The notes under the pieces: generated by a model
Told to the model about the DNA's origin: nothing
The model's database searches: none
What the model saw: the letters and a program-made list of their open reading frames with translations, nothing else
Shown: piece by piece, positions 24,143-28,517 of the stretch
Position numbering within the stretch: position 1 is the first letter of the stretch
Layout: each line of letters begins with the position of its first letter
Position numbers and translations under genes: made by a program
Assembly: GCF_000015145.1 (NCBI RefSeq)
Contig: NC_008818.1
Coordinates: 1,500,001-1,532,000 of the forward strand
Source: Hyperthermus butylicus DSM 5456
GTDB lineage: Archaea; Thermoproteota; Thermoprotei_A; Sulfolobales; Pyrodictiaceae
Reading direction: 5' to 3'
DNA: 32,000 bases

Positions 24143-24997
24143 CTAGGAGCCCCCAGCCGCAACTACAGCTGCGGCCTTCCCAGGCTCGGAGACACTTGTC
24201 TCCTCGTCCTTACAAGCCTTCTTGTTGCTGGTAAGCTTCTCCTCGATGAACCTCCGGTGCGCCTCACGGTTTAGTATTATGCCGACAAGGTAGTGTGGAA
24301 GCTCGTGCCGGACAAATGCCTCCACAACCTTGGCCTCAGCCTTCCGGAGTAGTTCAGCCAGCGTAGAAACCGAGACGCCGAGCTTTGCAGCTAGACTCTT
24401 AAGACTAATCCTTCGTGGGAAGCTATAGTAGCCCATCAGGTAGGCGTAGATAAGTGCTAGCTCCTGCTTCTCGGTCAGCATGTAGTCGTACTCGTCGATA
24501 CGATGCATGAATACTATCCTGTACCCGCTAGACCGGAGGTAATCTAGCCCCTTCCCCCGCGCCACTATGAACTCGCAGAGAATACCATAGGGCGCAATTA
24601 TAACGGACTTAGCCATAACACCTATGGGAGCTGATACCAGTAGACAGCTCTTACCATTCCGTAGGCACGCACACTTAGACACATCGACGAGGATCCTGTA
24701 TACGTTGTTAAACTTGCTGGAATAGACGCGCTGGAAGGCAAGCCCATCCATTCGCTTCAGCTGTCTCTCAAACTCTTCCATCGATCCGTTCCCGCCGCTA
24801 GCCCGAACCCAGAGCTCCGTAACGCCCCGCTCCCAGTCAATGTTAACCCTCAAGACGCGCGCAGCGAGACCACTAACAAGCCTAAGCGGGCCGCTATCAG
24901 TATCGCTGCTCTTCTTAGCAGCACTGCTAACCGCCATGTACAGCGGACATTCAAGGTTGTCGCGGAGGCAGAACACTACTAGTGGCACATTCGACAT
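24143..24997 (-). CDS. HTH_10 (bacterio-opsin-activator-type) DNA-binding regulator
   Basis: The ORF is 284 aa. The C-terminal HTH reads LTEKQELALIYAYLMGYYSFPRRISLKSLAAKLGVSVSTLAELLRKAEAKVVEAF, which matches the HTH_10 pattern LT-x-+Q...GY(F/Y)-x-PR...LA..LG(I/V)S..T..E.LR+AE.K. Confidence 0.7.
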   Translation of the reverse strand: MSNVPLVVFCLRDNLECPLYMAVSSAAKKSSDTDSGPLRLVSGLAARVLRVNIDWERGVTELWVRASGGNGSMEEFERQLKRMDGLAFQRVYSSKFNNVYRILVDVSKCACLRNGKSCLLVSAPIGVMAKSVIIAPYGILCEFIVARGKGLDYLRSSGYRIVFMHRIDEYDYMLTEKQELALIYAYLMGYYSFPRRISLKSLAAKLGVSVSTLAELLRKAEAKVVEAFVRHELPHYLVGIILNREAHRRFIEEKLTSNKKACKDEETSVSEPGKAAAVVAAGGS

Positions 24998-25085
24998 GCT
25001 AACACCCAGAGGCGCCAGAGCCCAAGGTAACTACCCTGCTACCAGCCCAAACCTATACCAACGATATAGTATGCAAAATGTTTTG

Positions 25086-25099
25086 CCGAAAATTTTCGG
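25086..25099. promoter_or_regulatory. perfect 14-bp palindrome CCGAAAATTTTCGG, candidate operator
   Basis: The palindrome was read directly from the sequence. It lies about 90 nt upstream of the HTH_10 gene start (24997), in the divergent intergenic region shared with the CBS/Cas6-like genes. Confidence 0.35.
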
Positions 25100-25355
25100 G
25101 ACGTATGTACGGTATACCCAGCTTCTACCCACACAACGCCCAGCCACGCTGCCAAAAACGGCACCTAACAACCCTCCCCCTCACGGCGAGAAAACCGTGG
25201 AACCCATCCAAGGCTGGGTACCCATAACCCCCTATTACATCAAGGTTACCAACAATGATCTACGGCAGAGACAGCATTAGTGCCATGAGGTCTTCGCGAT
25301 TTCCCCTTGAGTTCTCGCCGTATAGGAGGCATGAGAGCCGTTATAGTTTACTGAG

Positions 25356-25365
25356 TTATTTAAAT
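25356..25365 (+). promoter_or_regulatory. TATA-like box TTATTTAAAT upstream of the CBS gene
   Basis: This AT-rich box lies about 25-30 nt upstream of the first possible start of the CBS ORF (TTG 25387). That spacing is consistent with an archaeal TATA to TSS distance. Confidence 0.3.
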
Positions 25366-25386
25366 TCCGAAATGTGGAGTGAATAG

Positions 25387-25929
25387 TTGGACCTTGGCCT
25401 GGCTGTGAACAGCAAGAACATACAATTCCTGTTGCCTATTATCGTGAATTACTTGGCTTACTTGTTTGGGCCATGTGCTTGGCTGTGGTGGGTTTTTGTT
25501 GGGGGTGTGTTGTGGGTTTGTGCTTGGGGTGGAGTTTTGCCCCTTGTTACTGCTCGGGATTTGATTAGGGATTCTCGTCTGGTGTATGCTTTTCTGGATG
25601 GAACAATTACTGATGCTGTTAAGCGTAAGACCGAGCCTAGTGTTGGTAGTGTACCGGTTGTTGGTCATGATATGAGACTTCTTGGTATTTTTACCGAGAG
25701 GGATCCTGTGGGGCTTATTGCTAGTGATGAGAGTCTCGATCGGAGTCTTGGAGAGGTTATGATGTGGGGTCTTGGTGTGGCTCATCCTGATGATTCGCTT
25801 CCGAGTACTGCATATAAAATGGTACGGCACGGGGCTAGGCATACCCCAGTTGTTGATGAGGATGATAGGCTCCTTTGCGTGGTGAGTATTCGTCGGGTAC
25901 CGCAGTACATGCTTGCTGGAAGTGAATAG
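25387..25929 (+). CDS. CBS-pair domain protein
   Basis: Two CBS-like repeats are present: VPVVGHDMRLLGIFTERD and TPVVDEDDRLLCVVSIRR. The first 50 codons or so (G/T-rich, WLWWVFVGGVLWVCAWGG) may not be translated. Alternative starts are GTG 25507 and TTG 25537. Confidence 0.7.
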   Translation: MDLGLAVNSKNIQFLLPIIVNYLAYLFGPCAWLWWVFVGGVLWVCAWGGVLPLVTARDLIRDSRLVYAFLDGTITDAVKRKTEPSVGSVPVVGHDMRLLGIFTERDPVGLIASDESLDRSLGEVMMWGLGVAHPDDSLPSTAYKMVRHGARHTPVVDEDDRLLCVVSIRRVPQYMLAGSE

Positions 25930-25950
25930 CCTTAGGGGGTTGTTGGGGTC

Positions 25951-26877
25951 TTGGCTGTGCCAAGGATCACAGTGTACGTTGTTGATGTAGTGTTTAGGCC
26001 TTTGAGGAGTGTCCAGCTCAGGGGTGCCTGGAGTGGGGTTTTCTCGGGGAAGGTTGTGTATGATGCGTTGAGCCTTTCTGGCCTGGTGCTTGATCGTGGC
26101 GGGTTTTTCCGTGTAACTCCGGTTTACCGTGCCAGTGTCAGCCTTGACGCTCCGAGTAACGCTCCGGCGCCAGTTGCTGGAACGCTGTTCTCTGGGGAAC
26201 GGTACCGGTTCCGTGCCGTATTCTGGGGTTGGACCGGGTTTGTAGAGGCTAGGGATGCCGTTAATGCCCTGGTTAGCGGGCTGGGCGGGCTAGACTATGT
26301 CGAGGTACTTGAAGCTAGAGCCAGGACCATTGATGTCGAGTTGCCAGAGCCTCACATCGAGAATCACGGTGAGCGGCCGGTTGCCGGCGAGTTCGAGGTG
26401 CTTCACGAGGCTACATTCTACCGATTCCACGGCGCGCTAGTCTCGTACCCTAGCCCCTGGAGACTCATAGCGAGCGTTGCCCGGCGCATCTCAATGGCCT
26501 CAGGGATAGACTACCGCCCACTTGTCAGGCTCCTCCAGCCCTGCCTGGAGGTGGCTGTGGATAAGACTAAGAGGATGAGGATAAAGCTCACCCACGGCGA
26601 GGAAGTACCAGTCTTCAAGGGCCCCGTGGTCTACCATGTTGTCTGCAGCGAGCACCTCTACAGGCTAACCCAGCAAATGCTAGAGCTAGCCAAGCTCTTC
26701 GGCGTAGGCGGGAGCCCCGGCCTAGGCATCGGAGTAGTCTACAACGTTAGGAAGGTGCCATCACGCCATAAGTTACCGCCGGGCGTACTAAAGGATACCT
26801 ATGCCCTTGAACCCGAAGAGGGGGAGAAACTTGTAAAGCATGGAAGCGCAAATGGTGATGATACCAAAGAAACGTAG
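25951..26877 (+). CDS. Cas6-like RAMP protein (putative, orphan)
   Basis: The ORF is 308 aa with a TTG start, 22 nt after the CBS gene. The C-terminal glycine-rich loop FGVGGSPGLGIGVV fits the RAMP/Cas6 signature GhGxxxxxGhG exactly. Upstream segments resemble Cas6 blocks: FFRVTPVY, GERYRFRAVFWG, FEVLHEATFYRFHGALVSYPSPWRLIASVARR and VPVFKGPVVYHVV. There is no His in the first 134 residues. The call rests on pattern recognition only. Confidence 0.5.
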   Translation: MAVPRITVYVVDVVFRPLRSVQLRGAWSGVFSGKVVYDALSLSGLVLDRGGFFRVTPVYRASVSLDAPSNAPAPVAGTLFSGERYRFRAVFWGWTGFVEARDAVNALVSGLGGLDYVEVLEARARTIDVELPEPHIENHGERPVAGEFEVLHEATFYRFHGALVSYPSPWRLIASVARRISMASGIDYRPLVRLLQPCLEVAVDKTKRMRIKLTHGEEVPVFKGPVVYHVVCSEHLYRLTQQMLELAKLFGVGGSPGLGIGVVYNVRKVPSRHKLPPGVLKDTYALEPEEGEKLVKHGSANGDDTKET

Positions 26878-26981
26878 TAGTAAACTGTATTGTGAAGCAA
26901 CCCTTCTCAATGGTACCATGGTATTAACTGAAGTGTATGAAACTTGGAAATTCACATGAACACCGTACCCATATCTCTACG

Positions 26982-28517
26982 CTATTCCTTTCTCTTCAGC
27001 CAGCGGTCTAGCCCAGTTGTCTTTGGCTGCTCTTTTGCTCTGCGGAGTACTTTTTCGATGAAGCGGTCTCTTACGGGCTCGTAGACCTCCCTGTAGAAGC
27101 GCTGTGGGTCCCGGAGGACGCTTCTCGGGAACTGTTTGAGGTACTCTAGTGCTGCCCGCCATGCCTCCTGGAAGCCTATTCCTGCTTCCTCGAACTTCCT
27201 GGCTACGTGGCGGTCGAAGTCCTCGGGGCGCTGCTCAACACCTCCTATCACGTACCAGCCCCTAGAGGATACCTGGGCCTTTTCGCCGCCGACCTCTTCC
27301 CAGCGCAGCTCGTCCTCTGGAACAGTTGCTGCCCGTGTACTGTAGCGCCTGGCCTCTGCTGCTAGTCTCGGCCTCCTAGCTGGGCCATAGTACTTGGCCC
27401 ATGCGTAGAATATGGCGCGGTTGAGGCCCCAGCTCTTCGCTTTCTCGAGGTCGCCCGTTAGCAGGTAGTATCGGGCAGCCTGGAGCAGCGCCATTACCGG
27501 AAAGCGGCCCGGCTCCCTCGGCTCACCGGGAGCTGTTGGCGCAGCTGCCGCTGCTGGTATTGCCGCCTCCAGCATTGATGGTAGGCCTATCTTGGCTGCT
27601 CTTGCCTCCATTAATGCTCTCTTCTTCACCTTGCCTATCCTTCGGAGAGCCTCTCTAGCATAGTCGTCGGCTTCGCCCTCCACATAGCTTCTCCACGCGT
27701 CTGGGTTGTGGTGGGGCCTAGCTGGGAGGCTCCAGTCGGGATTGAAGCTATCCAGCTCCTTGGGCGATAAGGCTACTGCTACCCTGTCGAGGCGTCGGTG
27801 TAGGCTGAGGGGCGCGGTGAACACACGCTTTGCTGCTACGAGGTTTTCCACCTTGACAAGCCCGCCACAGCCATGTACGGCGCGTAGTATTTCGGGTTCC
27901 AGCTCCTCAAGCACTAGCTCAGCTGCTGCAAACGCCACGTCGAGGGGATGCGCTTCCCCTAGAATGTCGCGGAACGCTCTCTCGTGGATCCTTATGTGCA
28001 TTCCTGCACCACTCCAGAGCATGTAGACGCTGCTGCAGACGCCGTGTTCCCGGCAGAGCTGCTCATATATCATCCTGGCGATTTCTACCACGCAGCGCCA
28101 CGCATCACCGATTCTCTGCTCGTCAATAATATCCACGTCTATGAACGGCGTAGCATAGGCCACGTTTTCCTCGTATCCTTCCTCCACATCGCTACGGGCC
28201 TCAAGCCTACGATACACCTCTATGGTCCCATAGAAGCTCCTGGCACCAATACTCTGGAACCTCCTAACAATCTCCAGCACGTCCCGGGGCTCACGTACAA
28301 CCAGTGGTCTCGGTCCAAGCCATCTAGCCCACTTCTTTCCCGGACCTTCAACTGCAGCCCAGCGGCCACGGAGGAAATCCGCCATCTCCCTCTGAACTTC
28401 ATGTCTGGAGTAGTATGCTAGGGGGCTAATAGTCAAGGCCGAGGAAACCCCATGAAGTAGTATTACGCATAGCTGCCAGATTATTGCCTGGCAGGGTCTT
28501 CGGCCCAACCACTGCAA
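26982..28517 (-). CDS. archaeo-eukaryotic primase (AEP) superfamily protein, PriS-like, with about 180-aa C-terminal helical extension
   Basis: Motif I is ATPFIDVDIID (DxD). Motif II is YMLWSGAGMHIRI, against the canonical SGxRGxH. Motif III region is VENLVAAKRVFTAPLSLH, against the canonical D..VT.D.KRL.R.P.SLH. The N-terminal PLAYYSRHEV resembles the start of PriS. The start is uncertain (TTG 28517 or TTG 28436). Confidence 0.65.
   Translation of the reverse strand: MQWLGRRPCQAIIWQLCVILLHGVSSALTISPLAYYSRHEVQREMADFLRGRWAAVEGPGKKWARWLGPRPLVVREPRDVLEIVRRFQSIGARSFYGTIEVYRRLEARSDVEEGYEENVAYATPFIDVDIIDEQRIGDAWRCVVEIARMIYEQLCREHGVCSSVYMLWSGAGMHIRIHERAFRDILGEAHPLDVAFAAAELVLEELEPEILRAVHGCGGLVKVENLVAAKRVFTAPLSLHRRLDRVAVALSPKELDSFNPDWSLPARPHHNPDAWRSYVEGEADDYAREALRRIGKVKKRALMEARAAKIGLPSMLEAAIPAAAAAPTAPGEPREPGRFPVMALLQAARYYLLTGDLEKAKSWGLNRAIFYAWAKYYGPARRPRLAAEARRYSTRAATVPEDELRWEEVGGEKAQVSSRGWYVIGGVEQRPEDFDRHVARKFEEAGIGFQEAWRAALEYLKQFPRSVLRDPQRFYREVYEPVRDRFIEKVLRRAKEQPKTTGLDRWLKRKE

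Follow-up and report, generated by a model that had tools for sequence, protein, structure and literature searches.

What does a cas6-like gene do in a stretch of chromosome without any CRISPR array or other cas gene, and does the CBS-pair gene that precedes it on the same strand work with it? The question is raised by a locus of the archaeon Hyperthermus butylicus within the window analysed here, a stretch of 32,000 nucleotides (nt) at positions 1500001-1532000 of the contig; the genome is a single contig of 1,667,163 bp with 53.7% GC. A sequence-only reading had taken the two genes for an orphan two-gene unit, in which a non-canonical or repurposed RNA-binding RAMP protein is paired with a sensor of adenosyl ligands, and had named a stand-alone Cas6 serving distant arrays as the conservative alternative. 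The evidence supports this alternative. We put at roughly 0.85 the probability that the second gene is the single stand-alone cas6 of H. butylicus, of the crenarchaeal type without a catalytic histidine, serving arrays far away on the chromosome. The two open reading frames (ORFs) are as follows, in window coordinates, which are used throughout unless genome positions are named.

25387-25929, plus strand: CBS ORF as called, 180 amino acids (aa), TTG start
25951-26877, plus strand: cas6 ORF, 308 aa, TTG start

Family and fold of the 308-aa protein

The 308-aa protein matched PF10040 (CRISPR_Cas6) over residues 161-263 with 26.2 bits, the gathering cut-off being 25, and was also matched by Cas6 models of PADLOC, by PDLC01650 at 1.2e-8 and by another at 5e-5. 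PF01881 and TIGR01877 matched neither this protein nor any other place in the genome, in which PF10040 does detect the gene. A word-indexed search of 5.8 billion proteins returned just 14 relatives with 40-53% identity, 12 of them with a precomputed PF10040 match, and the closest named homologue was that of Pyrofollis japonicus. An exhaustive profile search gave 77 related representatives. PF10040 was matched by all 41 aligned relatives, window protein included (best 2.8e-15), and the profile of these 41 members, compared by sequence alone with Cas6 proteins of solved structure, aligned to the C-terminal domains of 6FJW (4e-19), 4ILL (1.6e-7), 3ZFV (2.3e-7) and 4C8Y (5e-7).

An AlphaFold (AF2) model was built from the alignment of the 15-sequence clade closest to the protein, with a predicted local distance difference test score (pLDDT) of 82.9 and a predicted template modelling score (pTM) of 0.80. 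It contains two beta-alpha-beta-beta-alpha-beta units, that is, two tandem RRM/ferredoxin-like domains. When the model was searched against the PDB with Foldseek, the first 35 matches were all Cas6 with probability 1.00, headed by 6FJW at 2.2e-11. Structural alignment with VIA-align, spanning residues 5-271, gave Z 18.3 to 4ILL (Sso2004; 237 residues, root-mean-square deviation (rmsd) 3.6) and Z 18.2 to Thermus thermophilus Cas6A (214 residues, rmsd 3.2), and 18 Cas6 entries were found at Z 18.3-13. The parts of the protein are listed below.

25963-26340, plus strand: N-terminal RRM/ferredoxin-like domain, residues 5-130 (strand 5-17, helix 28-42, strands 53-55 and 85-91, helix 100-111, strand 117-130)
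26377-26757, plus strand: C-terminal RRM/ferredoxin-like domain, residues 143-269, containing the part matched by PF10040
26701-26733, plus strand: loop diagnostic of Cas6/RAMP proteins, glycine-rich (GVGGSPGLGIG, residues 251-261) and with no basic residue
26758-26874, plus strand: disordered C-terminal tail, residues 270-308, with pLDDT below 50 at 282-307

The loop motif that had singled out this ORF in the sequence-only reading is indeed present. It begins at residue 250 as FGVGGSPGLGIGVV and falls, in the model, after the last helix (234-250) and before the last strand (263-269), and its glycines G253, G259 and G261 are kept in 40-41 of the 41 relatives. The profile matches, the fold and the position of this loop fully support that 25951-26877 encodes a genuine Cas6, a member of the enzymes that process CRISPR transcripts to guide RNAs, as had been suspected from the letters. 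Compared with its orthologues in the 15-sequence alignment, the window protein has a 7-residue insertion in the N-terminal domain at about residues 60-67 and a C-terminal tail that is about 25 residues longer, an extension found in the window protein alone.

The distant arrays and their candidate processing enzyme

Arrays and other cas genes were reported missing from the 32 kb, and this held: the repeat of the genome has 0 copies in the window at up to 3 mismatches, and the arrays and the cas genes lie about 820 kb away. A k-mer scan of the genome located array 1 at 632.5-635.9 kb, with 49 repeats on the plus strand, and array 2 at 702.4-705.6 kb, with 47 repeats on the minus strand, both with leaders upstream. 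The 25-nt repeat, GAACAACTCAAAAGAGAATTGCAAG in DNA and GAACAACUCAAAAGAGAAUUGCAAG in transcripts, is identical between the arrays (n = 96) and agrees letter for letter with the H. butylicus repeat used as an oligonucleotide in earlier work (PMC3597662); H. butylicus also has a row in the RAMP alignment in the supplements of PMC3150331. The repeats end in ATTGCAAG, the crenarchaeal 8-nt tag region, and form a weak CUC/GAG mini-stem alone (-1.5 kcal/mol). With this weak mini-stem and this 3' end, the repeat is therefore the kind of substrate that Sulfolobus Cas6 handles.

Each array adjoins a complete effector module, namely a type I-A set at array 1 (Cas3'', Cas3', Cas8a, Cas5a, Cas7, Csa5, Csa3, Cas4, Csa1, Cas1) and a type III-B set at array 2 (Csx1, Cmr4, Cmr5, Cmr1, Cmr6, Cas10, Cmr3). 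No Cas6 was found among the genes of either module by profile and PADLOC matches. Genome-wide, the matches for Cas1, DevR/Cas7 and RAMP all lie 800-900 kb from the locus, and the window gene is the sole match in a PF10040 search. When the hidden Markov model of the clade was run over all six-frame ORFs, the window gene scored 2e-123 and the next best ORF 0.07. Three other ORFs were considered as a second Cas6 and rejected: a 273-aa ORF between cmr3 and array 2, with no Pfam or PADLOC match and no glycine-rich loop, and two ORFs in the I-A region, of which the 151-aa one is PIN-like and the 188-aa one has no match. When glycine-rich loops of the RAMP type were sought by regular expression around the cas modules, Cmr1 was returned and, apart from it, a single match in a 63-aa frame (genome 705855-706043) beside array 2. 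The window gene is thus the only candidate pre-crRNA (CRISPR RNA precursor) processing enzyme in the genome, and with its assignment the type I-A and III-B systems of H. butylicus gain the crRNA-processing enzyme that was missing from them.

These observations suggest how the gene may act. Cas6 would bind GAACAACUCAAAAGAGAAUUGCAAG in the long transcripts of both arrays and would cut 8 nt before the 3' end of each repeat, just after the mini-stem, and the resulting crRNAs would have the tag AUUGCAAG at their 5' end. As Cas6 works on RNA in trans, a single copy could be enough for both effector complexes, type I-A and type III-B Cmr. Processing in trans for both complexes, the likely function, matches the arrangement described for Sulfolobus, where the single cas6 of Sulfolobus islandicus REY15A processes crRNAs for type I-A and III-B complexes (PMC4390879). 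In type I-A systems of crenarchaea, cas6 often forms a transcription unit of its own outside the effector operons, and its adjacency to arrays or cas genes is common but not required (PMC4390879). Compared with these cassettes, cas6 of H. butylicus is not merely a separate unit near the cassette but about 820 kb from both arrays. The distance is unusually long, while the stand-alone arrangement itself has already been described in crenarchaea. Since a cas6 gene can be this far from its arrays, it takes the whole genome, and not a local window, to judge whether a cas6 gene is an "orphan".

Orthologues in the family Pyrodictiaceae supplied the linkage to arrays that is missing in H. butylicus. 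Of 28 family genomes, 13 have a cas6 orthologue, and the nearest relatives of the gene, with 40-55% identity, all come from this family. We scanned 11 orthologous loci with the H. butylicus Cas probes and an array finder. At five of them (our genomes G007, G010, G022, G017 and G005) the orthologue has arrays or cas genes as immediate neighbours: it is 350 nt away from an array of 53 repeats in G007, between two arrays and adjoining a Cmr module in G010 (Pyrofollis japonicus), next to csa3 and an array in G022, to cas5a and cas3 in G017, and to cas4-cas1-csa1 in G005. An array was located within 3-11 kb in G006 and G023, and the gene stands alone in G014, G018, G002, G003 and one metagenome contig. 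Detachment from arrays is therefore recurrent. The repeats at the G007, G010, G022 and G006 loci share AACTCAA(A/C)AGAGAATTG(T/C)AAG with those of H. butylicus. Among the nine family genomes rated at least 98-99% complete, this repeat family was carried by all six with a cas6 orthologue (6-120 copies) and by none of the three without it. Because the genomes are kin, we regard this co-occurrence as supporting evidence and not as a statistical test.

Several features around the arrays were recorded in passing. The leaders of the two arrays (genome 632300-632556 and 705553-705800) are inverted copies, and the arrays, separated by about 67 kb, are transcribed divergently. The 273-aa ORF (genome 700864-701685, plus strand) appears rich in Leu, Ala, Lys and Glu by eye and may be an uncharacterised Cmr accessory subunit. 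A 405-aa ORF (genome 706029-707246, minus strand) adjoins the leader of array 2 and has a PADLOC mad2 (mads_2) match at 2e-25; beside it is an ORF with PIN_6 and a zinc ribbon.

Putative active-site residues within the clade

The closest structural matches of H. butylicus Cas6 are two proteins of Sulfolobus solfataricus, Sso2004 (4ILL/4ILM/4ILR; Z 18.3) and Sso1437 (3ZFV; Z 17.3). Like it, they are stand-alone crenarchaeal proteins built from two RRM domains, with the glycine-rich loop in the C-terminal part, and they lack a catalytic histidine in the N-terminal domain. Their substrates are repeats of some 24-25 nt with next to no structure, which end in AUUG(A/C)AAG. The identity is only about 15%, however, and the loop reads GIGRSRGIGFG in SsoCas6 and GVGGSPGLGIG in H. 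butylicus. In the profile alignment to 3ZFV, the SsoCas6 residues K51, R231 and R269 fall on G51, E217 and P256 of the window protein, and loop positions 254 and 256 align to R267 and R269. Cas6A of T. thermophilus (TTHA0078; 4C8Y/4C8Z/4C97) shares the fold (Z 18.2, profile 5e-7), but it is bacterial and, unlike the H. butylicus protein, has a catalytic histidine, the title of one entry naming the H37A mutant. T. thermophilus Cas6A recognises a hairpin repeat. Cas6 of Streptococcus thermophilus (6FJW), the best profile match among solved structures and the top Foldseek match, is also bacterial and, in contrast to the H. butylicus protein, retains a lysine in its loop (GLGMKTSLGMG).

The close clade was also compared with the wider PF10040 relatives. 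Most of the wider relatives have K and R at loop positions 254 and 256, with the loop mostly reading GVGK(S/N)R(G/S/A)IGFG, whereas the close clade has G/A and P there and the loop G(V/L/A)G(G/A)SPG(L/I)G(L/I/F/M)G. At position 217, K or R is found in 35 of the 41 wider relatives, and at position 256 in 30 of 41. Unlike SsoCas6, the clade has invariant residues of its own, R54, H152, H160 and H215, together with R158, R171, R178 and a K or R at position 34; every one of these is present in the intact H. butylicus ORF. K34, considered as a possible counterpart of the key SsoCas6 residue K28 of helix alpha-1, is located in helix 28-42, is K or R in 15 of 15 clade members and 28 of 41 wider relatives, and lies in a region after which the profile alignment to 3ZFV begins.

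Two peculiarities had been taken as signs of repurposing, the absence of histidine from the first 134 residues and a loop without a basic residue. Both descriptions are correct, as the first histidine is residue 135 and the basic-free loop is a trait of the whole close clade, but the meaning given to them was not upheld. SsoCas6 has no active-site histidine and relies on K25, K28, K51, R231 and R269, and the catalytic histidine is missing from most crenarchaeal Cas6 enzymes (PMC3652601), so that a protein without it represents the crenarchaeal norm. The basic-free loop is common to all close orthologues, including those adjoining CRISPR arrays. Because clade members with this loop still adjoin arrays, the changes in loop and residues can be read as remodelling of the active site within a working Cas6 lineage rather than as repurposing. 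The active site of the clade, having lost the equivalents of K51, R231 and R269 and gained R54, H152, H160 and H215, may have been rebuilt, possibly in a form that depends on histidine. Cas6 active sites are known to be plastic, and this small clade of Pyrodictiaceae and relatives adds a natural case in which that can be studied.

The CBS-pair gene and the weighing of alternatives

The upstream ORF does encode two tandem CBS motifs (Pfam CBS 3.9e-14, in two stretches) on the same strand as cas6, as had been proposed; the gap between the two is 21 nt (25930-25950), and the start of the ORF appears to be over-extended. CBS orthologues were found in 28 of 28 family genomes with 42-54% identity, the match being confined to residues about 48-180. 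Since relatives match only this part, and since the start codons of the orthologues align with the TTG at 25537, the true start is probably 25537, which reads MPLVTARDLIRD... and is preceded by GGGGTGGAG. The corrected gene would encode 130 aa. The 50-residue hydrophobic N-terminus of the ORF as called is best read as G/T-rich DNA translated in frame, and 25387-25536 probably does not code for protein but forms a 5' leader.

25356-25365, plus strand: TATA-like element TTATTTAAAT, from reading of the sequence, about 26 nt upstream of 25387
25387-25536, plus strand: non-conserved 5' extension of the CBS ORF, G+T 0.65-0.79, with no relative matching residues 1-45
25537-25929, plus strand: CBS-pair gene with the revised start, 130 aa

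The 15 family genomes without a match to the cas6 query have the CBS gene as well. In four large genomes that have both genes, these are 0.2-1.9 Mb apart: at 7 and 220 kb of one contig in G014, 285 and 534 kb in G007, 645 and 1436 kb in G010, and 2200 and 270 kb in G006. A CBS homologue was absent from the 1.5-15 kb flanks of 11 cas6 orthologues and from three contigs from the protein look-up, and no ORF of the window was found within 1.5 kb of the CBS orthologues of 11 relatives. Among the relatives examined, the two genes are thus adjacent in H. butylicus alone. The CBS gene is a conserved, housekeeping-type gene and an unrelated neighbour of cas6, not its functional partner; the two-gene unit of the sequence-only reading finds no counterpart in gene order, and synteny in relatives, on which the pairing with an adenosyl-ligand sensor depended, came out against it.

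A shared preference for codons ending in G or T had been a further argument for the pair, and only half of it stood. For G+T at third codon positions (GT3), the CBS ORF ranks first among 1257 non-overlapping genome ORFs with a minimum length of 150 aa, at 0.81 (T3 0.50), the mean GT3 being 0.49 with a standard deviation of 0.07. With GT3 0.53, at the 69th percentile, cas6 as a whole is ordinary, and block by block the bias is limited to roughly its first 120 codons. The bias follows a plus-strand G+T patch at about 25300-26300 (0.57-0.79 in 100-nt bins) that ends inside cas6 near codon 120. G+T-rich patches of similar strength were observed at genome 322.1, 688.8-689.7 (csx1), 1187.3 and 1665.7 kb, and A+C-rich ones at 124, 736.8 and 1336.2 kb. 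Because the patch stops inside cas6 and similar patches in either sense occur elsewhere, the wobble bias is a regional compositional feature and not a signature of a two-gene unit. Strand-specific change from C to T and from A to G would be compatible with this pattern.

Weighed against these results, a functional module in which an adenosyl-ligand sensor controls or acts with a repurposed RNA-binding RAMP appears very unlikely. The common strand and the short gap, in which no oligo-T tract was found, make co-transcription plausible in H. butylicus, where the two genes may share a transcript, and both overlap the one G+T-rich patch. That patch carries no shared gene signature, however, while CBS orthologues are present in all 28 family genomes and cas6 in 13, the genes are far apart in the four large genomes, the cas6 flanks are without CBS homologues, and the oddities of the protein are traits of the whole clade or of crenarchaeal Cas6 in general. 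A lineage-specific regulatory link, in which co-transcription ties crRNA processing to the state of adenosine nucleotides or S-adenosylmethionine, is hardly to be expected either. That cas6 is a remnant, newly transferred or in decay, with no relation to the CRISPR systems of the genome, for instance cargo of a mobile element that also brought the CBS gene, could be suspected from the lower local GC (0.49 at 25001-26000), the skewed composition and a neighbour without Pfam match on the side of cas6 away from the CBS gene. This origin is extremely improbable, as the ORF is intact with all clade-invariant residues kept, the nearest relatives are members of the same archaeal family, every family genome has a CBS orthologue that looks vertically inherited, and the repeats of the genome are of the repeat family found with this cas6 clade; no tRNA, integrase or flanking repeats were seen at the locus, although no search was aimed at them.

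The stand-alone Cas6 has itself to be set against several observations that weigh on the other side. The match of the 308-aa protein to PF10040 is marginal, barely over the cut-off; the three SsoCas6 residues that are not conserved contribute at least 10-fold to catalysis; the 820 kb between gene and arrays deprive the assignment of support from genomic linkage in H. butylicus; the co-occurrence counts come from related, non-independent genomes, and metagenome-assembled genomes often lack assembled arrays; and the function is predicted from sequence comparison and modelling. The replacement of K51, R231 and R269 by G, E and P and the basic-free loop across the clade also point towards a Cas6-fold RNA binder with lost or weakened nuclease activity, which would serve as a crRNA chaperone or bind other RNAs while another enzyme cuts pre-crRNA, and Reeks et al. 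see Cas6 proteins as RNA chaperones as much as catalysts (PMC3652601). We consider this unlikely, since the genome has no other Cas6 candidate, its arrays are large and both effector modules intact, and members of the clade remain beside arrays. The clade-invariant K/R34, R54, H152, R158, H160, R171, R178 and H215 could rebuild an active site, and, with as many as 5 mismatches allowed, the genome showed no repeat-like site beyond the arrays, so that no alternative substrate of that kind was found. A single stand-alone Cas6 acting on the distant arrays thus remains the preferred explanation.

Some features upstream of and within the CBS gene deserve mention. The element TTATTTAAAT is a candidate promoter for the CBS transcript and possibly also for cas6, and an internal ATATAAAA near 25815 is a second candidate. 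An Rfam scan of 24900-27100 (E up to 1) gave no match. G runs (GGG, GGTGGG, GGGGG, GGG, GGGG) were observed at 25440-25545, within the G/T-rich leader that precedes the corrected start of the CBS gene, and could form a G-quadruplex on the plus strand. Further upstream, an HTH_10 regulator gene (24143-24997) is located between a cytochrome c maturation operon and the CBS and cas6 genes, and the divergent region between it and the CBS gene contains the perfect palindrome CCGAAAATTTTCGG at 25086-25099. Homologues of this regulator with about 40% identity are located about 6 kb from the cas6 orthologue in G003 and G002 (L045:3120-3779 and L046:9992-10645), and the genes called between the two in G002 are radical-SAM/SPASM and NirDL-like, resembling alternative haem synthesis. 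The presence of the regulator near cas6 in these two genomes and in H. butylicus may be a remnant of a shared gene order.

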